Of a DNA stretch of 64,000 bases, positions 834-22,215 are shown piece after piece. Every line of letters begins with the position of its first letter. Within the stretch, counting starts at the first letter, position 1. Source of the DNA: an uncultured bacterium (GTDB lineage Bacteria > Planctomycetota > UBA8742 > UBA2392); NCBI GenBank assembly GCA_938014885.1, contig CALLQI010000004.1:94578-158577 (forward strand), given 5' to 3'. Below the pieces are notes generated by a model. That model saw nothing but the letters and a program-made list of their open reading frames with translations. It was not told where the DNA came from and made no database searches. A program made the position numbers and the translations under genes.

Positions 834-2531
834 CTACCCCACATTCATGGACAGCAGGAACTCGGCGTTGTGCTGGGTCTTCTTCAGCTTTTCCTTCAAC
901 AGTTCCATGGCCTCAATCGGGTTCATGTCGTTGAGGATGCGGCGAAGCACCCACATGCGCTTTTGCTCGTCGGCTTCCAGCAGCAGCTCTTCCTTGCGCG
1001 TGCCGCTGCGGGTTACGTCGATGGCCGGGTACACGCGGCGGTCGGCGAGGCGGCGGTCCAGGTGCAGCTCGGCGTTGCCGGTGCCCTTGAACTCTTCGAA
1101 GATCACTTCGTCCATGCGGCTGCCGGTATCGATCAGCGCGGTGGCGATGATCGTCAGGCTGCCACCTTCTTCGATGTTACGCGCGGCACCAAAGAAGCGC
1201 TTGGGACGCTGCAGCGCGCTGGCATCGACGCCGCCGGTCAGGATCTTGCCGCTGTGCGGCTGTTCGGTGTTGTACGCGCGGCCAAGGCGGGTGATGCTGT
1301 CGAGCAGGATCACCACGTCAATCTTGTGCTCAACCAGGCGCTTGGCCTTGCCCAGCACCATTTCAGTCACCTGCACGTGGCGGCTGGCCGGTTCATCGAA
1401 TGTGCTGGCGATGACTTCGGCGTCGACGGTGCGCTCCATGTCGGTGACTTCTTCGGGGCGCTCGTCGATCAGCAGCACGATCACGTAGATGGCGGGGTGG
1501 TTCTGGCGGATCGCGTTGGCGATCTTCTGCAGGATCACAGTCTTGCCGGTGCGGGGCGGCGCGACAATCAGGCAGCGCTGTCCCATGCCGATCGGCGTCA
1601 CCAGGTCAATCACCCGCAGGTTCAGGTCGTTCTTACTTTCGAGGAAGATGCGCCGGTCAGGGTACAGCGGCGTCAGTTCATCGAATGGGACAACTTCAGA
1701 CAGCTTGTTCGGGTCTTCGCTGTTGACCTTTTCAACCTTCAGCAGCGCGAAGTAGCGTTCGTTGTCCTTGGGCGGGCGGATCTGGCCGCTGACCACGTGG
1801 CCGGATTTGAGGCCGAAGCGGCGGATCTGGCTGGGGCTGACGTAGATGTCGTCGGGGCTGGGCAGGTAGTTGTAATCAGGGCTGCGCAGGAAGCCGAAGC
1901 CTTCATTCAACACTTCCATCACGCCTTCGCCGAAGATCATGGCGCCGCGCTTCACGCGGTCTTTCAGCAGCTGGAAGATCAGGTCCTGCTTCTTCAGGCC
2001 GGACATGTCGAGCATGCCAAGCTGCCGCACATCGCGCTGCAAATGCTCCATCTTCATCTTCTGAAGGTCGTTCAGGTTGATGATGACGGGCGGTTCGCCG
2101 CTGGGTACCTGGGGCTGGACGTCCACGTTGGTGCCGTCGCCCAAATCCTGGTTCGGGGCCTCAACGCGCGCGGGCGGGGGTGGTGCCTGCGGCGGGGTAT
2201 CGCCGTTGTATGCCGGCGCTGCGGCCGGCTGCTCCGTGGCGATGGTGTTGCCGTTTTCGGTCGCGGCGTTTCCGTTGCCGGCCGCGTTGCCGTCGCGCTC
2301 ACGGGCGCGCATGGCGTCTTCGCGGGCCTGCTCGCGGGCTTCTTCACGTTCGCGCTGGGCTTCCATGCGGGCCATTTCGGCCTGCATGCTGGCGACTTCC
2401 GTGTGGATGTCGGTCAGCTTTTCCTTGCGGCTGCCGCCACCTCCGCCGCCTCCGCCGCGATTGCGACGTCCGCCTCCGCCACGCTGACGGCCACGACGTT
2501 TTTGGGTGTTGTTCTTTCCATCTCCGGTCAT
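834..2531 (-). CDS. rho: Transcription termination factor Rho with an RGG/Gly-rich N-terminal insertion
   Basis: Rho hallmarks read in translation: the RNA-binding OB region ...[11 protein letters not shown]..., Walker [16 protein letters not shown] and the C-terminal ATPase ending MNVG. The start is placed at ATG 2531 (GGAG upstream) rather than the ORF-track 2747, which would overlap coaE. The N-terminus contains [27 protein letters not shown]. Confidence 0.9.
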
Positions 2532-2664
2532 GATGACTCCTGTGTTCCGCGCCGCGTGAGGAACGCGGGGCGGTGCTGCGCGGGCCGGGCCGCCACTGAC
2601 GGGCGCACCCTGAAAGACCTGCGGCAGTACCGGGGTATCTGGTTGGGCCCCCGGCGGGCCTGGT

Positions 2665-3285
2665 TCACGGGCCTTTGCCCGACATGTCTCCGAAATACCT
2701 GCGCCAGATGATTTCCACCTGGGGTTCAAGATCCGCCACCGGGCCATTGTTATCGATAATGGCGTCGGCGCGGTTGCGCTTCACTTCAAGGTCAAGCTGA
2801 TGTGCCTGGCGGCGTTGCAACTCGCCTTCGGGCCATCCGCGTTTGCTGATCGCGCGGTCTTCGCGGATGTCTTCATCACAATCCACAAAGATCAGCGCCG
2901 TGTACTTTCCTTCATAGGCCCCGGACTCAAGCAGCAGGCTGATGTCCAGCACCACGGCCTTCGCATTCGGGTCCACGATGCCGGCGGCCAGCTTGGCTGC
3001 CGTGCGTTCGCGGATGCGCGGGTGCGTGATGCCGTTCAGCAGGGCGATCCGGCCTTCGTTGCCGAACACTGCCGCCGCCAGCTTGTCGCGCGCCACGTTG
3101 CCGTCCGCGTCGAAAATCTCGTTGCCAAAGGCCAGCCGCAGTTCGTTCTTCACGGCCGGGTCTTTCAGTACCGCGTGGCCTTCGAGGTCGGCGTCAATCA
3201 CCACGGCCCCGCGCCTGGCAAAACAGCGCGCCACTTCGGATTTGCCGGACGCCACGCCGCCGATCAGGGCAAACACGGGCTTCAC
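2665..3285 (-). CDS. coaE: Dephospho-CoA kinase
   Basis: P-loop IGGVASGKS at the N-terminus; length (206 aa) and overall similarity to CoaE. Confidence 0.85.
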
Positions 3286-12469: not shown

Positions 12470-14500
12470 TCAGTCGATCAGCTTCAGGCCGCGCGGCGAC
12501 AGGAATACCGCAAACGGGCGCCCCACGAACAGTTCGCGCTCGACGTAGGGCATGCGTTCGACCTGCAGATGTTCAATGTCGGCCAGGTTGATCCGCACAT
12601 AGCCGCCGCCTTCGGTGTAGAAGTCAATCGCCGCACGGCCCTGCCGGCGGGCGTGTTCCTTCAGCAGTGCCAGGGCCTTGGCCACGTCGCGGGCGTCAGC
12701 GCCTTCGGTGTCGCCGCGCTCGGCCGGCGTGAAGTGGGCTACCCGATACAGCATTTGCGAGGCGCTGTAGGTGTCGCCTTCGTTGATCGCGCGGGCCAGG
12801 ATTTCCATCAACGCGGGCTGGCTGGCGTGGTCCAGCGCGCCTGAGACTTCACTGTCCTTGAAGAACAGCGTCACCCGCGTCCAGAAGCGGCAATCGGCGC
12901 TGCCCGGCGAGTTGTCGCCCAGCACCAGGAAACGGTCGCCGTCCAGCCGCACGGCAAAGGGGTATTCGTCCAGGTCCGCCGGGCCGTCCAGCATCGTGCG
13001 GCCGACGTAGTACACGTCGCGATCAATCCCCAGCATCTTCACGGCGGCACCGGGGCCGATGCCCTTCAGCGCCAGCCGCGCTTTCCGGCCGCCGGGCGGT
13101 GTGGTCAGGGCCAGCCGGATCGCCTCTTCACTATCGAGTGCCATGCGCTTTTGCGCGTCGCGGGCGCGCAGTTGATCGAGCAAAGGTGAGCCGACGTCCA
13201 CTTCGGCCGCGGTCTCGCCGTCAAGCGCCACGCGCAGCAGGCCGTCCGCCAGCGAAAACTCGAGGACGAACTCGCCCGGGACCTCCAGTTTGGACAGCGC
13301 CCCGTCGGCCAGCGCATTGATGTTGCCGGTTTCGTCGCTGTGGGCCAGCGTTGCCCCGCCGCGGCCGGGGCCCAGCGTCAGCAGGTAGACGTCGCCGTCG
13401 CGGGTCAGTTGCACCGCAAGCTTGCCGTCTGAGGCCAGCTCAACCCGGGCGCGCAGGCGGATGTCCCCCACCACGCGGCGGCCGTAGAAGTCTTTGGGCG
13501 TTTCGACCTTGCCGAAGCTGGCGTCGTGATCCACGACGTCAGCGGGCTCGGCGCCCTTGCCGCGCGGGAACACGGCCTGCCCGTCCTGCTTCAGCGTGAT
13601 TACGCCATCGGCAAATGCGGCCGCGCCTTCGCGGTGGAAGTATTTGACCCAGTCAGAGGTTTCGGCCAGTTCATGCAGGATCGGCAGCCACAGGGTCTCG
13701 CGCGCTTCGCCATCTTTGCGCAGCAGGTTGATCGGCGCGGTATCGTGTTCTTTGACGTACACGTCGCCCTGGGCGATCAGCACCTGTTCGCCGGGCAGGG
13801 CCACGCAGCGCTTGACGTAGGGGTCGGTGCGGCGCAGCGGGTAGCGAAACACCACGGGCTCCCAGCGGCGGGGGTCGCGCCACTGGTAGGTGAATTTGTC
13901 CACGACCACGCGGTCGCCGTCAGTCAGGCTGCCGCGGCCGATGCTGCTGCCGATCAGCGTGGGCGCCATGCTGCCGGACGGGATCTGGAAGGCCTCAAGC
14001 GCGAAGTGCCACACCAGCAGCACGACCACCAGCGCCGCTGCCAGGCTTTCGATGTTGTCGAATATCTTGTCAACGAACGTGGGGTCTTTGGGGCGAATCT
14101 CGCGGCCCTTCACAAGCGCCTTTTCCGAAGCGCCACGCACCGCAAGCGCCGCCACGAATGCAAGCAGCCCGGCCAGGCTGGCAAAGCCCGACACGCGGTG
14201 CAGCGCCATCGCGAGCAGCGCGCAGCCCATCAGCGCCACCACCACGCCGCCGCGCGCGATGGGCGAAACGCCCTTGCGCCCCAGGTTCATGTACCACGAA
14301 GCCCCGGCCAGCAGCGGGATCAGCACCAGCACGGGAAAGCGCAGCCACACGCCGTCCAGGTGCGCGGGCATGAACAAGGCCACCAGCGCGCAAAGCCCAG
14401 CCAGCACGCAGGTGACGTCAGCGGCACGCCGCCGCCACGCGGGTTTTAAGCGCGCGTAGCCCTTCACGACGGGTTCCAGTTTGGCGTTTTCTTCAGCCAT
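12470..14500 (-). CDS. lepB: Signal peptidase I (S26) with an N-terminal multi-TM extension and a large inserted domain
   Basis: Box B IPSGSMAPTL (Ser nucleophile), box C GDRVVVDKF, box D VKRCVALPGE (general-base Lys), box E GDNSPGSADCRFW. Start at ATG 14500 (MAEENAKLEP). About 240 aa are inserted between boxes D and E. Confidence 0.75.
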   Translation of the reverse strand: MAEENAKLEPVVKGYARLKPAWRRRAADVTCVLAGLCALVALFMPAHLDGVWLRFPVLVLIPLLAGASWYMNLGRKGVSPIARGGVVVALMGCALLAMALHRVSGFASLAGLLAFVAALAVRGASEKALVKGREIRPKDPTFVDKIFDNIESLAAALVVVLLVWHFALEAFQIPSGSMAPTLIGSSIGRGSLTDGDRVVVDKFTYQWRDPRRWEPVVFRYPLRRTDPYVKRCVALPGEQVLIAQGDVYVKEHDTAPINLLRKDGEARETLWLPILHELAETSDWVKYFHREGAAAFADGVITLKQDGQAVFPRGKGAEPADVVDHDASFGKVETPKDFYGRRVVGDIRLRARVELASDGKLAVQLTRDGDVYLLTLGPGRGGATLAHSDETGNINALADGALSKLEVPGEFVLEFSLADGLLRVALDGETAAEVDVGSPLLDQLRARDAQKRMALDSEEAIRLALTTPPGGRKARLALKGIGPGAAVKMLGIDRDVYYVGRTMLDGPADLDEYPFAVRLDGDRFLVLGDNSPGSADCRFWTRVTLFFKDSEVSGALDHASQPALMEILARAINEGDTYSASQMLYRVAHFTPAERGDTEGADARDVAKALALLKEHARRQGRAAIDFYTEGGGYVRINLADIEHLQVERMPYVERELFVGRPFAVFLSPRGLKLID

Positions 14501-14560
14501 GGCGATGTGGTGAAGCAAGCTATATTGGCGCCCGTTTGGAACAACCGCACGGAGAGACAA

Positions 14561-15028
14561 ATGCTCAAGGCTGGCGACACCGCGCCCGACTTCAACCTGC
14601 CGGACCAGGACGAAAAGACGCACTCATTGAAAGACAATCGCGGCAAATGGGTCGTGCTGTTCGCATACCCCAAGGCCAACACCCCCGGCTGAACCAAAGA
14701 AGCCATTGCCTTCACCGGTCTGGTGAAAGACTTTGCCAAGCTGAACGCCGTCATCTACGGAATCAGCCCCGACAAACCCGCGGCCCAGAAAAAGTTTGAG
14801 GCCGACCACAGCCTGCGCGTGCCCTTGCTGTGCGACGTGGACAAGGCCGTAACCACGGCCTACGGCGCGTTCGGCAAGAAGATGATGTACGGCCGCGAGG
14901 TGCAGGGAATCATCCGCAGCACCTTCCTGATTGACCCCAAGGGCAAGCTCGCCCGCGTGTGGCCCAACGTAAAGGTAGACGGCCACGCGGAGGCGGTGCT
15001 GGTAGCGCTGAAAGAGCTGACGAAGTAG
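14561..15028 (+). CDS. bcp: Bcp-type 1-Cys peroxiredoxin with an in-frame TGA (14690..14692) at the peroxidatic Cys position; candidate selenocysteine protein
   Basis: Reads MLKAGDTAPDFNLPDQ...GKWVVLFAYPKANTPG-TGA-TKEAIAF...LIDPKGKL..., colinear with E. coli Bcp (...YFYPKAMTPGCTVQAC...). ORFs 14507..14692 and 14723..15028 are in the same frame, separated only by the TGA. GGAGAG lies upstream of ATG 14561. Confidence 0.6.
14711..14727 (+). other. SECIS-like hairpin 18 nt downstream of the in-frame UGA in bcp
   Basis: UUCACC-GGUCU-GGUGAA: a 6-bp stem with a GGU-containing apical loop, placed at the spacing expected for a bacterial SECIS. Confidence 0.4.
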
Positions 15029-16334: not shown

Positions 16335-17489
16335 ATGGATTTCAACTTCACCGAAGAACAAACCATGTTCCAGCAGGCCGCCGCGGACTTCTGCAAGAAC
16401 GAAGTCGAGTCCGTGGCCATGAAGCTCGAGAACAGCAAAGAGTTCCCCGCGGAGCTTACGCAGCGTATGTCCGAGCTTGGCTTCATGGGGCTGGTCGTGC
16501 CCGAGCAATACGGCGGCGTCGGCGCGGATTACCTGGCCTACCTGCTGGTGGAAGGCGAAATCGCCAAGACCAGCATCAGTCTCAGCATGACGCTGGGTGC
16601 GCAGAACAGCCTGGTCGGGCTGCCGATGATCAACTTCGCCAGCGAAGAGTTGAAGCAGCGCTACCTGCCAAGCCTCGCCAGCGGCGAGAAGCTGGGCTGC
16701 TTTGCACTGACCGAGCCCGGGGCCGGCAGCGACCCCGCCGGCATGCGCACCACGGCCGTGAAGAAGGGCGACAAGTGGGTGCTGAACGGCACCAAGATCT
16801 ACATCACCAACGGCGCCGTGGCCAAACTCGCGATTGTGTGGGCGCGCACCGGCACCAAGCCCGACGGCAAGCCGCAGATCACGGCGTTCCTGGTCGATAA
16901 GGACGAAAGCCCATTCAAGGTAGGCACGGTCGAGGACAAGATGGGCGTGCACGCCAGCCCAACCACCGAGCTGATCTTCGAAGACTGCGAAGTGCCCGCC
17001 GGCAACGTGCTCGGCAAAGAAGGCGACGGTTTCAAGGTAGCGCTGCTGACGCTGAACACCGGGCGGCTGAGCGTCGCCACGCAATGCCTGGGCCTCGCAC
17101 AGGCGGCCTACGAGCGCGCCAAAAAGTTCGCGACCGAGCGCGAACAGTTCGGGCAGAAGCTGGCTGACTTCCAGGCCATAGCCTTCAAGCTCGCCGACAT
17201 GATCACCGAGATCAACGCCGCCAAAGGCCTGGTATGGCACGCCGTGTGGCTGAAAGAGCAACACGGGCTGAACGACCCGCGCTTCATCAGCATGGCCGCA
17301 CAGGCCAAGCTGTACGCCAGCGAAATGGCCGAGCGCGTAACCAGCGCATCAGTACAGATCCACGGCGGCTACGGCTACATGAAGGAATACAGAGTAGAAG
17401 AGTTCTTCCGCGCGGCGCGCCTGATGACCATCGTGGAAGGCACCAGCGAAATCCAAAGGCTGACCATTAGCCGCTGGGAACTGAAATAA
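16335..17489 (+). CDS. Acyl-CoA dehydrogenase
   Basis: ACAD fold signatures (LTEPGAGSD, catalytic region YGGYGYMKEY), 384 aa. Confidence 0.9.
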   Translation: MDFNFTEEQTMFQQAAADFCKNEVESVAMKLENSKEFPAELTQRMSELGFMGLVVPEQYGGVGADYLAYLLVEGEIAKTSISLSMTLGAQNSLVGLPMINFASEELKQRYLPSLASGEKLGCFALTEPGAGSDPAGMRTTAVKKGDKWVLNGTKIYITNGAVAKLAIVWARTGTKPDGKPQITAFLVDKDESPFKVGTVEDKMGVHASPTTELIFEDCEVPAGNVLGKEGDGFKVALLTLNTGRLSVATQCLGLAQAAYERAKKFATEREQFGQKLADFQAIAFKLADMITEINAAKGLVWHAVWLKEQHGLNDPRFISMAAQAKLYASEMAERVTSASVQIHGGYGYMKEYRVEEFFRAARLMTIVEGTSEIQRLTISRWELK

Positions 17490-17496
17490 AAGCAAA

Positions 17497-17606
17497 CCAG
17501 AGCCCGAGTGCGTAAGCACCGGGACCGCTGCCAGCGACGGCCGGACGCACGGCAACGGCGTCGAACCACGAAGCGCCACGAAGTACCACGAAGAACGGCA
17601 ACTTCG
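17497..17606 (+). repeat. Copy 1 of a roughly 110-nt intergenic repeat (accagagcccgAgtgcgtAagc...gaaccacgaagcgccacgaagtaccacgaagaac)
   Basis: About 85 percent identical to 18792..18899. Contains three tandem ccacgaag octamers. Lies immediately 3-prime of the ACAD stop. Confidence 0.6.
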
Positions 17607-17683
17607 ATCTAGCGTTTTCGACCGCTGATTCACGTTGACGATATGCGCATGGCACTTAGCTTGGGTGCCGGACGGAGACCGTC

Positions 17684-18772
17684 ATGCGCCATTCGCTGGA
17701 TTACGTTGACCCGCGCACCAAGTTCGAAAAGACCTACCGGGGCGCCGGACTTACATTTGGCCTCCTGGTTGGGCTGAACTCGGTGCTTCTGCTGGTGATC
17801 GCCAACTTCAGCGACGACGTATACGGGACCTATGCCGGCGAGCGGATGTTCATGAACGGCTTTGGCGTGGCGCTGGCCGGATTCACGGTCGGCATCACGA
17901 TCGCCCTGTTCAACAAGCAGCGGTGGGCCGCGTACCTGGCATTCATCATCACCGCGTTGCTGCTGGTGGCAGCCGTACTGGCTCAGGTCGTGGACATCTT
18001 CCCCGGCGGCGACGGGCCTTCTGGTGGGGGCGTGATTGGCATAGTGCTCGTCGCGCTGGCGACCATCGTGCAGTTCAATGCGGTCCGAATCCCGCGCCCG
18101 TATCAGCTAGCGCCTTCGCCGCGCCGCCTTGCCGAAGGGTATCCTTTGTTGCAGCCGTACAGTGCAACCCCTGCTGGCGACAGAAGTGCCGCACCACCCG
18201 GGATGCCGGTGAAGTACCCCTTGGGCAACTCGGGCATCGCGATGCTCGCAGTCTGCGGCCTGACGGTGCTGGCGGGGATCGGCATGTCCGTGTACGGGAT
18301 TGCGCTGGTATTGAACCCGGAAGTGGCGGAATGGGTGGTGGTCAGGGATGAAGTAATCGGCGTGCAACTCGAAATGCCCGGGCAGCCGCAGGATGTGCTG
18401 GAAACGCCCGACCTGACCATGAGCTACATCCGCACTCAAGAATATGCGGCCGAGTTCTGCACGGTGTCGATCACCTGCGTCGAGCTGCACGAAGGATTCG
18501 GTTTCAGGGAACAAGACGTCGCGCGCAGCCTCACGACCGGCGTGGACTACTCCAAGGCAACTGTTCTGTCCCGTGAAAGAATCCAAAGCAACGGCATCGA
18601 GATGCACGCCCTCATCCTGCACCGCGTGGATGGCTGGCATGAGTACAAGTGGGTGTTCCACACCACCTCGCACTGCGTGACGGTGATCGTCACGAAACCC
18701 CAGGGGCGCGATTTTCCCAGCGTGGACCGCGTCCTGGAGAGCATCCGCTACACCGTTCAACCGCCCGATTAG
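17684..18772 (+). CDS. Integral membrane hypothetical protein (four N-terminal TM helices plus a C-terminal soluble domain)
   Basis: Hydrophobic segments LLVGLNSVLLLVIANF, GVALAGFTVGITIALF, AAYLAFIITALLLVAAVLAQ, GIVLVALATIVQF; no family recognised. Flanked on both sides by the repeat element. Confidence 0.55.
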   Translation: MRHSLDYVDPRTKFEKTYRGAGLTFGLLVGLNSVLLLVIANFSDDVYGTYAGERMFMNGFGVALAGFTVGITIALFNKQRWAAYLAFIITALLLVAAVLAQVVDIFPGGDGPSGGGVIGIVLVALATIVQFNAVRIPRPYQLAPSPRRLAEGYPLLQPYSATPAGDRSAAPPGMPVKYPLGNSGIAMLAVCGLTVLAGIGMSVYGIALVLNPEVAEWVVVRDEVIGVQLEMPGQPQDVLETPDLTMSYIRTQEYAAEFCTVSITCVELHEGFGFREQDVARSLTTGVDYSKATVLSRERIQSNGIEMHALILHRVDGWHEYKWVFHTTSHCVTVIVTKPQGRDFPSVDRVLESIRYTVQPPD

Positions 18773-18791
18773 CAGCGCAACACTGGCCAAG

Positions 18792-18899
18792 ACCAGAGCC
18801 CGGGTGCGTGAGCGCGGGGCCCCCTGCCAGCGACAGCCAGACGTACGGCAACTGCTTTGAACCACGAAGCGCCACGAAATGCCACGAAGAACAGCAACT
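18792..18899 (+). repeat. Copy 2 of the roughly 110-nt intergenic repeat
   Basis: accagagcccgGgtgcgtGagc...gaaccacgaagcgccacgaaatgccacgaagaac. Same order, orientation and ccacgaag triplet as copy 1. Confidence 0.6.
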
Positions 18900-19004
18900 G
18901 CCGCATCGGATCACAGGCAATGGCCTTTGCGCGCCGGACCGCTGAGAAGCCCGTGGTGGAACTTGCCGTTATCCGTGTGAGTCCGTGGTTCCAAAGCCGT
19001 TGCC

Positions 19005-19193
19005 TCACGCCCAGGTTGCGGGGTCGTTGTGGATCAGGCCGCTGATGATGTACCACAGCACCCAGGCCATGCCGCCCAGCCACATGAGCTTGATCCACAG
19101 CGGGATGCGCTGGTGGCCGGTTTCCGGCGGGCCTTCCGGCAGTGCGGGCACGTGTGGCGTCTCTGCGGCGGATTGCGTTGTTGGCTCGGTCAT
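19005..19193 (-). CDS. Small single-TM membrane protein downstream of the cbb3 oxidase genes (CcoQ/CcoS-like position)
   Basis: 62 aa with a TM helix IPLWIKLMWLGGMAWVLWYIISGL; overlaps the preceding ORF by 4 nt (operonic). Confidence 0.4.
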   Translation of the reverse strand: MTEPTTQSAAETPHVPALPEGPPETGHQRIPLWIKLMWLGGMAWVLWYIISGLIHNDPATWA

Positions 19194-19453
19194 GGCTTGT
19201 CCTCCGCGATTGGTGGCGATATCGGAGCCACGTTCTCGGCACTCAGTACGGTCAATTCAGTCTGGTTGGATGTCGCAAAGCCGCCCACGCGCCAGTACGC
19301 GATGCACAGCATCAGCAGGCCGATGAACGACAGCCCGAACACGATGCCCACAAAGATCGCGGCGTCGTAGGCACCCTCCTCACAAAACAGGCACGCGTGC
19401 AGCGGCGAGGCCAGCAGCGGCAGCAGCAGCACGATCCAGCGCGAGCTTCGCAT
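19190..19453 (-). CDS. Small membrane protein in the cbb3 oxidase operon
   Basis: 87 aa, two hydrophobic helices, a CLFCEEG motif; ends 3 nt before the ccoOP stop. Confidence 0.4.
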   Translation of the reverse strand: MRSSRWIVLLLPLLASPLHACLFCEEGAYDAAIFVGIVFGLSFIGLLMLCIAYWRVGGFATSNQTELTVLSAENVAPISPPIAEDKP

Positions 19454-19455
19454 GG

Positions 19456-20673
19456 CTACTCCTTCACCTTGTACTGCTCACGATCAAACAGCGACGCCAT
19501 GTACGCGATCAGCGCATCGACCTCGGCGGGCTTCAGGTTCGGGAATGCCACCATGGCGCTGCCCGGGCGGCCTTCCTTCAACACGCGGCGCACTTCATCG
19601 GGGTGATACAACCGGTCGCGGAAGTGCTTCGGCGCCGGGCCGCCGGCAAACGACTTCGACATCGCGGCCGGGACGACTCCGTTTTCACCGTGGCAGGCCT
19701 GGCACTGCGTGCGGTACAGCTCGCGGCCTTGCGCCAGCACGGCTTCGCTGGCCTTGGCGGGGGCCAGCGCCGGCTTCAGCGCGGGCTCGCCCAGCGCGTT
19801 CACGTACTGGCTGAGCGCCCACAGGTCTTTCTCGGTCAGTTCGGCGAAGCTTGGCATGGCGCTGCCTTCGCTGCCCATGAACAGGATGCGGAACACTTCC
19901 TCGCGCGGCAGATAGCGCTTGGTCAGGTCGCTCGCGCCGGGCTTCAGGAAGTCAATCGCCAGCCCCTTGCCGTCGCCGGCCGTACCGTGGCAGCCGCTGC
20001 AGTAGTGCTGGAAAAGCTCCGCCCCGCGTGTGGCCTGTAACTCGGTGGCCTCGGGCGCGCCGGAGACCGTCACGCGGTCCGGCCACACCTGCTTGCGGAC
20101 TTCTTCTTTGAAGTGGATGCCGAGGTATTGCAGGTAGGCAACCAGGTCAGTGGCCTTTTCCGTGGGGATCCAAGTGTCGCCCTGCTGCTCAAACAGCCAC
20201 GAGTACTTGGGCATGATGCTGCCGGGCACGGTGGTGCGCGGGTTCCACAGGTGGGCGAGGTGCCAGTCGTCGCTGCGGCGACCTGCTTCGCGGCTCAGAT
20301 CCGGGCCGATGCGCCGCGTGCCGTACAGTTGCGGCACGTCGTGCATGGCTTCCCAGGCCTGGCTGCGCGGGCCGTAGCGGAACTCTTCGTTGGCGACCGG
20401 CCTCACGAACTGGCTGTGGCAGTGCCAGCAGCCCTCGGCGATGTAGATTTCGCGCCCGCGGCCGATGGCGTTGAGCTCGCCGTTTTCGTCAACGTAGGGG
20501 TTCACGAATTCTTCGGGTGGCTCCTGCCCGATTACGCTTAGCCACGGCAGAACGCCCATGGCCACGAACGACAGCAGAAAGAAGCCCACACCGGCCACGA
20601 GCAGCACAAACATCGGGCGCTCGGCTTTGCCTTCGGCGGGGGGCTTCGTGTGGTTATCGGCGGCTTCAGCCAT
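19456..20673 (-). CDS. cbb3-type cytochrome c oxidase fused CcoO/CcoP subunit (three heme-c sites)
   Basis: An N-terminal TM helix, then CWHCHS (CcoO-type monoheme), followed by CSGCHG and CQACHG (CcoP-type diheme). Start at ATG 20673 with GGAGG upstream; overlaps the ccoN stop by 8 nt. Confidence 0.85.
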   Translation of the reverse strand: MAEAADNHTKPPAEGKAERPMFVLLVAGVGFFLLSFVAMGVLPWLSVIGQEPPEEFVNPYVDENGELNAIGRGREIYIAEGCWHCHSQFVRPVANEEFRYGPRSQAWEAMHDVPQLYGTRRIGPDLSREAGRRSDDWHLAHLWNPRTTVPGSIMPKYSWLFEQQGDTWIPTEKATDLVAYLQYLGIHFKEEVRKQVWPDRVTVSGAPEATELQATRGAELFQHYCSGCHGTAGDGKGLAIDFLKPGASDLTKRYLPREEVFRILFMGSEGSAMPSFAELTEKDLWALSQYVNALGEPALKPALAPAKASEAVLAQGRELYRTQCQACHGENGVVPAAMSKSFAGGPAPKHFRDRLYHPDEVRRVLKEGRPGSAMVAFPNLKPAEVDALIAYMASLFDREQYKVKE

Positions 20674-22072
20674 TGGACACCTCCAGGCCAACTTTGCCGT
20701 TCTTGACGAAGAACAGATTCCAGACCAGGAACACCATGCTGAGCATCAGGAACACGCCGCTGATCGCGCGGGTCATCCAGAATGGCATGGCGGCCTCGAG
20801 CGAATCCTGCAGCGGCAGGGTGGTCAGCCAGAAGAAGCCCTGCATCAGGCCGGCGATGGTGTCCGGGATGTAGTACAGCACCCAGAACGCGATGAGCGTG
20901 ACCCAGAAGTGCGCCTCGGCCAGTTTGCGGTTGTAGCCCCGGCCGGTGATGCGCGGCCAGATCCAGTAGATGAAAGCGTACAGCCACCAGCTGAACACAC
21001 CGAACAGCGCCAGGTGCGCGTGCGCCACAACCCAGTCGGTGAAGTGCACCACCTGCTGCACTGATAGCAGCGCGTGGAACGGTCCCTGGGTGCAGGTCAC
21101 GATGTAGTTGAACAGGCCAAACGCCAGAAAGCGCAGCGGGATGTCGCTGGCAAGCTGGCTCCACTTGCCGCGCATGGTGGCAAAGAAGTTGTAGACCACG
21201 CTGTAGACCACGAAGATCAGCGTGAAGGTCAGCGGCACCGCAAGCATCTGCAACCACCAGGGCACCGGGCTGTAGAAGTAGTGGTGGCTGCCGCCCAGCG
21301 GGTAGAAGAAGGCCAGTGTCCAAAAGCCCAGCAGGCTCAGCTTATGGCTGGCAATCGGCTTCTTCAGCACCACGGGCAGCAGGTAATATATGATCGCCGC
21401 GCCCATCGGCGTCACCCACAGGCCCACCGCGTTGTGGATCCACAGGCCCGACAGCGCAGCCCCGGCCGCACCGGGCGCCACGAATGCCACGATGCTGTTG
21501 GCCATCACGAAGTTCAGCGCGGTGAAGATGAAGCCGAGAATCAGGTACCACGCGCTGACGTACAGGTTGCGCACGCCGGACAGCAGGATCGTGCCCACGC
21601 AGGAAACCAGCGTCGCCACGAAGCAGACGGCAAACGCGGCGTCGGCCCACCACGGGGCCTCAGTGTGTTCCACGGCCTGCGCGTGGCCCATCAGGATCGC
21701 GCCGCCGCCCAGCACCAGCGCCACCTGTGTCAGCGGCGCAAAGATCTTGGCCAGCTTGGGCAGAAACAGGTCGCGCCCCACCAAACGCGGGATCGCGTAG
21801 TAAGCGAACGCAAAGAACCCGTTCGTCAGCCACCCGAAGATCACGCTGTGCGTGTGGAACATGCGGATGCGGCCGAAACTCAGCGCGGCCGAATCGCCCA
21901 AAAACTCGGCGGCCTCGGGGCTGGTCAATCGATAACCCATCAGCGTGCCGCCAAGCATGCCGATGCCCAGCCACACGATGGCCGCAACGATATGGAATTT
22001 GACCAGTCCCAACTGGTCGGTTGGTGCGCGAACGGGCTTTGCAGGCGCGTCCTTGGGCTCTGTCTCCGGCAT
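20666..22072 (-). CDS. ccoN: cbb3-type cytochrome c oxidase subunit I
   Basis: 12-TM heme-copper oxidase with CcoN-like blocks (HTHSVIFGW, WVVAHAHLALFGVF). Start at ATG 22072 (MPETEPKD) with GGAGAG upstream. Confidence 0.9.
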   Translation of the reverse strand: MPETEPKDAPAKPVRAPTDQLGLVKFHIVAAIVWLGIGMLGGTLMGYRLTSPEAAEFLGDSAALSFGRIRMFHTHSVIFGWLTNGFFAFAYYAIPRLVGRDLFLPKLAKIFAPLTQVALVLGGGAILMGHAQAVEHTEAPWWADAAFAVCFVATLVSCVGTILLSGVRNLYVSAWYLILGFIFTALNFVMANSIVAFVAPGAAGAALSGLWIHNAVGLWVTPMGAAIIYYLLPVVLKKPIASHKLSLLGFWTLAFFYPLGGSHHYFYSPVPWWLQMLAVPLTFTLIFVVYSVVYNFFATMRGKWSQLASDIPLRFLAFGLFNYIVTCTQGPFHALLSVQQVVHFTDWVVAHAHLALFGVFSWWLYAFIYWIWPRITGRGYNRKLAEAHFWVTLIAFWVLYYIPDTIAGLMQGFFWLTTLPLQDSLEAAMPFWMTRAISGVFLMLSMVFLVWNLFFVKNGKVGLEVSNG

Positions 22073-22119
22073 GGCTCTCTCCGTGCGGGAATCGCTTCTG
22101 CACGGATACTGGCAACAAT

Positions 22120-22215
22120 CACGGCGCAATACAAGTAACTATAAAAAGGATAAAATAGCCCTAGTAACTCCTATATTTTGAATCCCTGTTATGTCTTTGA
22201 ACACATCTTTAATCG
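22120..22215. promoter_or_regulatory. AT-rich divergent promoter island between ccoN (-) and xseA (+)
   Basis: acaagtaactataaaaaggataaaatagccctagtaactcctatattttgaatccctgttatgtctttgaacacatctttaatcgc is sharply AT-rich in an otherwise high-GC sequence. It contains a direct repeat of AGTAACT. Confidence 0.35.

Follow-up and report, generated by a model that had tools for sequence, protein, structure and literature searches.

Intergenic repeats flanking an orphan gene in a Planctomycetota contig are probably solo arms of a dispersed hairpin-forming repeat family

The window analysed here is a stretch of 64,000 nucleotides (nt) from an uncultured bacterium of the Planctomycetota (assembly GCA_938014885.1, contig CALLQI010000004.1, positions 94,578 to 158,577 of the forward strand). 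A non-coding repeat of 108 nt occurs in it twice in direct orientation (copies A and B), on either side of a gene for a membrane protein of 362 amino acids (aa) that is an orphan, and a third, partial and inverted copy (C) lies a short distance beyond B. At a probability of roughly 0.6, these three copies are the solo or decayed arms of a dispersed family of hairpin-forming intergenic repeats, which has multiple loci per genome in a number of Planctomycetota metagenome-assembled genomes (MAGs).

The direct repeat and a third, inverted copy

A first-pass annotation of the window had reported a direct repeat of about 110 nt and about 85% identity around gene 17684..18772, with both of its copies immediately 3′ of a plus-strand gene, and the present analysis agrees with it on both counts. 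A repeat search returned a direct, gap-free repeat of 108 nt with 86% identity between 17496..17603 (copy A, plus strand) and 18792..18899 (copy B, plus strand), for which blastn gives an E-value of about 1.7e-22. The two copies differ at 17 positions in a 111-nt comparison, 15 of these lying inside the 108-nt repeat, and alignment with MAFFT shows that the similarity begins and stops abruptly on both sides. Copy A starts 6 nt past the stop codon of an acyl-CoA dehydrogenase gene (16335..17489, plus strand), which has three ACAD Pfam domains, and copy B starts 19 nt past the stop codon of the orphan open reading frame (ORF), located at 17684..18772 on the plus strand and enclosed by the two copies. 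No full copy other than A and B was found by blastn over the 64-kb window. A weaker similarity that had been said to continue for a further 40 nt or so amounts to a single common 9-mer (GACCGCTGA), which sits at differing offsets in the two places and is not significant.

Copy A is modular in structure, possessing a 5′ hairpin, a middle segment and an arm of the type termed right in the family described below, this being GGCAACGGCGTCGAA followed by three decamers and GAACGGCAACT. The 3′ 60 nt of both A and B can be written as CNGANG-N4-GCAACNGC-N3-GAA-[CCACGAAGNN]x3-AACRGCAA. The octamer that lies within each decamer, CCACGAAG, is present in copy A (17566..17593, plus strand) at 17566, 17576 and 17586, exact each time and in an exact 10-nt phase. 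In copy B (18862..18889, plus strand) it is exact at 18862 and 18882, with CCACGAAA at 18872. The earlier count of three such octamers per copy is therefore right for A, but B has two exact octamers and one that agrees at 7/8 positions. The triple-octamer motif was found 0 times in shuffled sequences. As for the shorter heptamer CCACGAA, it occurs 21 times on the plus strand of the whole window and once on the minus strand, and only six of the plus-strand occurrences are within the repeats.

Copy C, which the first-pass annotation had overlooked, was found through folding of the B region, where the start of the arm pairs over a long range with a stretch about 120 nt downstream. Located at about 18958-19004 on the minus strand, it reads GGCAACGGCTTTGGAACCACGGACTCACACGGATAACGGCAAGTTCC from 19004 to 18958. 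It is inverted and convergent with copy B, can be aligned to the half of A and B that contains the arm, and represents only part of an arm, having two decamers of the CACGGA type. It directly follows the stop codon (19005-19007) of a minus-strand ORF of 62 aa (19005..19193), and all three copies are thus found just 3′ of a gene and in the orientation of that gene. Together, B and C constitute a degenerate convergent inverted pair between the 3′ ends of convergent genes, with an inverted repeat of only 11-20 nt and an overall fold for which z is about 0 relative to shuffled sequences.

Membership of a repeat family in Planctomycetota

A genome collection was scanned with the pattern CCACGAA-N3-CCACGAA-N3-CCACGAA, and at least 115 loci in many phyla were found to carry it. 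This raw number is no evidence by itself, because in viral contigs CCACGAA gave 4 matches against 9, 1, and 12 for three composition-matched 7-mers. For this reason, scoring was confined to the flanks of the pattern. Unselected metagenome DNA amounting to 0.8 Mb contained no triple of this kind for any 7-mer. For the flank-only position weight matrix, the search pattern was masked and the 35 columns flanking it in six MAG arms were used. Across 127,876 positions of the window it ranked copy B first (27.5 bits) and copy A second (17.9 bits), the next best position having a score of 2.2. Similarly, nhmmer with a model of the window copies matched Planctomycetota loci in register and well beyond the triple pattern.

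The gap-free alignment of the arms can be summarised as C(T/A)GA(T/C)G-N4-GCAACTGC-N3-RAA-CCACGAAG-NN-CCAC(G/T/C)AAG-NN-CCACGAAG-AAC(G/A)GC. Copies A and B both possess the features by which the family is defined, namely CNGANG-N4-GCAACNGC-N3-RAA, three decamers with CCACNAAG octamers, and GAACRGC. Among the possibilities raised in the first-pass annotation was a repeat resembling repetitive extragenic palindromic (REP) sequences or miniature inverted-repeat transposable elements (MITEs), and this option gains support from the finding that the 3′ 60 nt of A and B belong to a family with multiple loci in Planctomycetota MAGs.

With respect to its distribution, the family has at least 6-9 loci in each of the MAGs FR_29 and HK-STAS-PLAN-36, and a canonical element is conserved over about 175 nt in these two and in Bin_90R. 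In order, this element comprises the left arm, about 19 nt of loop, the right arm and a conserved extension. Its arms are opposed and each comprises GCAACTGC, a short linker and three phased CCACGAAG decamers, with the middle unit of the right arm always mismatched (CCAC[T/C]AAG) across the MAGs. The resulting hairpin of about 110 nt is very stable (-59.6 kcal/mol, z = -6.9), being preceded by GCAACTGC-AAAAAC and followed by GCAGTTGC-TTTTCATC. An A-run is found ahead of each arm in its own orientation, with the result that a T-run comes after the hairpin in both reading directions. A compensatory change was seen in only 1 of 19 pairs, there being essentially no covariation in the canonical element because its octamers never vary. 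Comparison of the element with Rfam gave no match.

Gene contexts in the MAGs were determined with a simple home-made caller, which relies on the contrast in GC content at third codon positions (GC3). Among the matches listed, a position between divergent gene starts is rare, with 2/24 cases in Planctomycetota and 11/79 overall. Neither the window unit nor the canonical element had a match in a plasmid database. No published description of the family was found by sequence-motif searches and searches of REP and repeat literature within a limited literature collection. It is also worth mentioning that in one Planctomycetota MAG contig the Rfam family Acido-Lenti-1 is matched twice, in opposite orientations, at L072:4489-4619 (43 and 38 bits, both above the gathering score), with three CCACGAAG-type arms at a distance of a few hundred bases.

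Decay and constraint in relatives of the locus

Six small contigs of relatives (L116-L121) made up the comparison set for the locus. The arrangement of copy A, orphan gene and copy B is present in relatives down to 87% identity and is therefore old. In a strain that is 96-98% identical (L118, L121), copies A, B, and C are all there, with one octamer of copy B being CCAGCAAG and with three decamers in copy C of L121 vs two in the window. In a 93% identical relative (L120), copy A has differences at 8 of its 108 positions, including CCACGAAT and a GUAU loop in its 5′ hairpin. The 87% identical relatives (L116, L119) have kept the gene order, with their copy A lacking one decamer together with a further ~18-30 nt. 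Copy B of L116 ends after about 45 nt and gives way to about 400 nt of unrelated GC-rich palindromes, which are also found in place of copy C. This palindrome stretch (L116:1478-1884) contains CCCGCCATTGGCGGGCGTCCCCAGCC twice in addition to several more hairpins, and the convergent intergenic gap that holds B and C seems to be one that collects repeats.

Constraint on the window copies is weak and uneven, since their octamers mutate, the number of decamers varies and copies shrink or are overwritten in close relatives. Between the window and L121, copy B has 5/108 differences against 1.9% at third codon positions (p = 0.06), and so evolves faster if anything.

A further contig (L117) has a dehydrogenase gene that is 93% identical to that of the window at the nucleotide level, and homology stops exactly at the stop codon of this gene. 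The repeat accordingly marks a change in gene order, in that synteny with this relative ends at the dehydrogenase stop and the gene between the two copies is an orphan. In L117 the genes after the stop are small ORFs, a gene for a sigma-70 region-2 protein and dnaA, all of them unrelated to the window. Just past the stop (L117:1199-1350) there is a direct repeat, GACGCAGAG-N7-GACGCAGAG-TAAC, which loosely resembles the decamer grammar.

The end of contig L118 (window 17595) and the start of contig L121 (window 17567) derive from the same sequencing run and overlap by 29 nt, both contigs breaking within the octamers of copy A, and the repeat appears to fragment short-read assemblies. A scan of metagenome DNA with a degenerate pattern of 22 bases gave 0 matches, while a protein-anchored scan of such DNA returned only dehydrogenase relatives at 50% identity or less, which are useless as orthologous loci.

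Proposed origin and role of the repeats

The copies in the window would be right-type arms of the family, with B and C the remains of a convergent pair located between convergent genes, as in the canonical arrangement. With A having no partner arm, the B/C pair degraded and no U-tract or terminator-like site in them, the window copies are probably relics, which have little or no sequence-specific function today. The canonical element itself may be a bidirectional intrinsic terminator that has been multiplied in the manner of a REPIN (a REP doublet forming a hairpin), a BOX element or a MITE. We infer a role of the canonical hairpin in termination or at 3′ ends, mobility of the family, and a history in which A is a second B-type unit. 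This unit most likely came about long ago, when the locus underwent duplication or recombination in connection with the orphan gene that is now flanked. If so, the repeat of the window would be the leftover of a dispersed palindromic repeat and not a riboswitch-like or gene-specific regulator. What is unusual in the build of the family, for which Rfam has no model, is that its terminator-like hairpin carries phased octamers, invariant in sequence, in each of the two arms. If its status as the common terminator or mobile repeat in Planctomycetota is confirmed, the family would help in the annotation of 3′ ends and assembly breaks and in the avoidance of spurious ORFs in these little-studied genomes.

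A number of observations weigh against this explanation. The window copies are without a U-tract, ACCGCUGCC being what comes after the 5′ hairpin, and a terminator scan of 17490-17690 and 18780-19010 gave no terminator-like site. Only one cluster of the repeat is present in about 85 kb of the lineage (the window with L116-L121, searched by blastn-short and by the hidden Markov model of the family with --max), and mobility in the genome of the window is consequently not shown. Neither a transposase nor a REP-associated tyrosine transposase (RAYT) was identified among about 38 window ORFs scanned with Pfam and NCBIfam, and the alignment of nine canonical copies has no consistent flanking target-site duplication. 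The spacers between the octamers are purine-rich in the orientation of each arm and are not complementary between arms, a feature which oriented recognition sites fit better than selection for a pure hairpin. Finally, in the comparison with L120, copy A has 7.4% differences (8/108) vs 16% at third codon positions (p = 0.006), and the adjoining stretch from A to the start codon of the orphan gene (17604-17683) has 3/80 (3.8%, p = 0.0006). This low divergence hints at some constraint on A and on the intergenic stretch next to it, which maybe comes from the promoter or 5′ untranslated region (UTR) of the orphan gene.

Alternative explanations

The phased octamer array, (CCACGAAGGA)3, might instead serve to bind a protein that is oligomeric or has several domains, either on DNA, where the sites would be one helical turn apart, or on RNA. 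The arms would then be oriented cis elements at the 3′ ends of genes and the hairpin would be secondary, examples being the site of a termination, roadblock or processing factor, or the subterminal repeats bound by a transposase. This explanation is rather unlikely, even with several features to recommend it. The period is exactly 10 nt and the octamers are invariant with variable spacers; these spacers are purine-rich per arm orientation and non-complementary, as described; the mismatch CCAC[T/C]AAG in the middle unit of the right arm is conserved across MAGs; and the three window copies share their orientation relative to the upstream gene. The greater conservation of copy A than of third codon positions, seen in one comparison, is what keeps the explanation alive. 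However, octamers are substituted in relatives of 93-98% identity, the number of units varies, and parts of the copies are deleted in the relatives of 87% identity. In addition, whole modules of similar arrays in Caldilineaceae (Chloroflexota) switch to CACGGAG, CGCGGAG or CGCGAAG, which fits slippage or homogenisation better than it does a fixed recognition sequence, and no candidate protein was identified.

The Caldilineaceae arrays are in tandem and have the same grammar as the Planctomycetota arms, namely ACCTTTTGT, three decamers, GAAC and NGCAAC hexamers. Long arrays of modules of 40-75 nt are present at the Caldilineaceae loci L105, L106, L017, L036, and L087, and the modules switch as wholes among CCACGAAG, CCACGGAG, CCGCGGAG and CGCGAAG in a manner reminiscent of homogenisation in minisatellites. 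A flank-only matrix made from Caldilineaceae ranked copy B sixth and copy A 624th in the window, which is suggestive only. A wider view would take GCAAC-N3-TTTG-[CCACGAAGNN]x3-AAC-NGCAAC as one conserved functional unit across phyla, which is read by a conserved factor or carried on an unrecognised mobile element that crosses phyla. It would then occur as inverted pairs in Planctomycetota, as long tandem arrays in Caldilineaceae and as solo triples beside genes in Acidobacteriota. This view is speculative and its truth doubtful; if true, the module would be no lineage-specific repeat but a new class of non-coding element that is widespread among bacteria.

It is improbable that A and B are members of no wider family and arose only through a segmental duplication at this site, at the time of the insertion or creation of gene 17684-18772. 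Such an origin would suit the restriction of the 5′ hairpin and middle segment to A and B, these being absent from the MAG copies, as well as the position of the two copies around an orphan gene known only from a small clade and the fact that neither the 64-kb window nor 30 kb of the relatives' DNA contains a further copy. However, the flank-only score ties A and B to the Planctomycetota arms at ranks 1 and 2 of 127,876, copy C lies inverted and outside of the duplicated segment, and a Planctomycetaceae locus (L058) has a nearly identical counterpart to the CACGGAT-type arm of C. The version without a family is contradicted by the ranking, and the local duplication of a family member is retained. 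A and B are each other's closest known relatives, because both contain the 5′ hairpin and the middle segment, neither of which is shared by the MAG copies. The first-pass annotation had proposed the footprint of a duplication as one option, and it is retained to the extent that a local duplication is likely, and rejected as something purely local and without a family.

No sign of coding was detected in the copies. Their 17 substitutions are spread 5/7/5 over the three codon phases, from which the copies are taken as not coding, and a Pfam scan of the antisense ORFs that run across them gave no match. This is in keeping with the caution of the first-pass annotation that these similar antisense ORFs are not evidence of coding.

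A reading of the 108-nt unit as a structured RNA, be it a small RNA or a 3′-UTR regulatory RNA specific to these genes, is very unlikely. The only recurrent structure is the 5′ hairpin, found in copy A at 17503..17523 (plus strand; CCCG-A-GUGC [GUAA] GCAC-CGGG, with no U-tract behind) and in copy B at 18798..18820 (plus strand), where the loop is GUGA and a U-G pair replaces U-A. In its favour, this hairpin is present in 5/7 versions and its loop is mostly of the GNRA type (GUAA, GUGA, GAAA), and copy A folds slightly better than shuffled sequences (z = -2.2). The fold of copy B is no better than shuffles (z = +1.6, or 0.0 for a longer stretch), the loop is GUAU in one version, and the A versions of L116 and L119 are without the hairpin. 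Apart from this separate hairpin nothing folds, and the arm region of A and B (GGCAAC, decamers, GCAAC) is not self-folding. RNAalifold on five versions found a compensatory change in 0/20 pairs, with an unfavourable covariation term. No match at the gathering score was found for the whole window in Rfam (15), only noise appeared at E <= 10 over 17300-19200, no tRNA or tmRNA was revealed, and there is no promoter-like site upstream. The earlier proposal of a small RNA or a protein-binding module in a 3′ UTR consequently receives no support, given the absence of an Rfam match and of compensatory pairs, the mutation of the octamers and the truncated copies.

A last explanation, that A and B are integron-type attC sites and the orphan gene a gene cassette, can be dismissed as highly improbable, for although the layout is like that of a cassette array, in which each of the successive same-strand genes, one an orphan here, is directly followed by a similar repeat of about 100 nt, the ends of the unit carry none of the R/L core sites (RYYYAAC or GTTRRRY), the unit is not an imperfect palindrome, no tyrosine recombinase or integrase is present among the scanned window ORFs, the context is one of core housekeeping genes, and the first cassette would be the conserved acyl-CoA dehydrogenase.

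The orphan gene and the wider neighbourhood

When the 362-aa protein encoded between copies A and B was searched against 5.8 billion proteins, only the protein itself was returned, and its cluster at 90% identity has three members. Comparison of the gene with its counterpart in L116 gave differences of 18/19/71 by codon position, and with L120 the protein has 83% amino-acid identity, the corresponding value of the dehydrogenase being 99.5%. The orphan is a real, fast-evolving gene under purifying selection. The stretch between copy A and its start codon (17604-17683) contains TTGACG-N17-TAGCTT, a possible promoter for it.

The 62-aa ORF whose stop codon adjoins copy C is the last gene of a cbb3-type oxidase cluster (19005-22129, minus strand), which consists of ccoN, a gene for a 411-aa fusion protein and two small ORFs (87 and 62 aa). 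The 411-aa protein is FixO fused to two or three cytochrome c domains. All scores for the proteins of this cluster are far below the NCBIfam cut-offs. The neighbourhood is otherwise composed of core housekeeping genes, including rho, polA, dnaX, xseA, argG, clpP, and ychF. From the sequence itself, Planctomycetota is the probable phylum of the window on the strength of a DUF1579 protein, of scores that are far below NCBIfam cut-offs and of the matches to the repeat family. The rho gene (834-2747, minus strand) encodes a protein of 637 aa with a long N-terminal extension, having about 270 residues before its RNA-binding domain. A gene at 12470-14623 (minus strand) encodes a 717-aa protein with a signal peptidase I match at residues ~190-350 only, the L118 counterpart of which is 676 aa in length.

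Comparison with known systems

REP sequences are defined as imperfect palindromes of 20-40 nt with an unpaired GTAG or CGTC tag (PMC3733652), and REPINs are inverted REP doublets which fold into a long hairpin (PMC3116915). The present family is like these in being short, non-coding, extragenic and present in multiple copies, in having inverted doublets that give a long hairpin alongside single leftover units, and in having few members in promoter regions, with a tie to termination or mRNA 3′ ends. The inverted doublet hairpin typical of REPINs is seen in the canonical Planctomycetota copies, while the window keeps only the degenerate B/C pair. However, a single arm here is not palindromic, being about 50 nt in length with phased decamers, no GTAG/CGTC tag is conserved, and no RAYT is among the scanned window ORFs. 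GTAG is absent from both A and B, and CGTC is found once in A (GGCGTCGAA), where B and L120 have CTTTG. As the palindrome and the tag both fail, the unit is not filed as a REP.

As regards MITEs, the canonical copies have inverted arms, and no consistent flanking duplication is visible among the nine aligned copies. There is a likeness to bidirectional intrinsic terminators, in that the canonical element forms a hairpin of high stability, flanked by an A-run on its near side and a T-run on its far side, and often lies between convergent genes. Ordinary terminators of this type do not, however, form a dispersed family with conserved sequence, and the copies in the window are solo arms that have no U-tract.

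BOX elements are known from Streptococcus pneumoniae and minisatellites of the mycobacterial interspersed repetitive unit (MIRU) type from mycobacteria, with sub-units of 45 nt (boxB) and 51-77 nt (MIRU), respectively. There is no sequence similarity between these and the repeats described here, and the hosts are unrelated. The sub-unit also differs, being a 10-nt decamer with an invariant octamer. Nevertheless, the build is comparable: both are intergenic, are assembled in modular fashion from short sub-units whose number in tandem varies, form a stable secondary structure and differ in copy number between strains.

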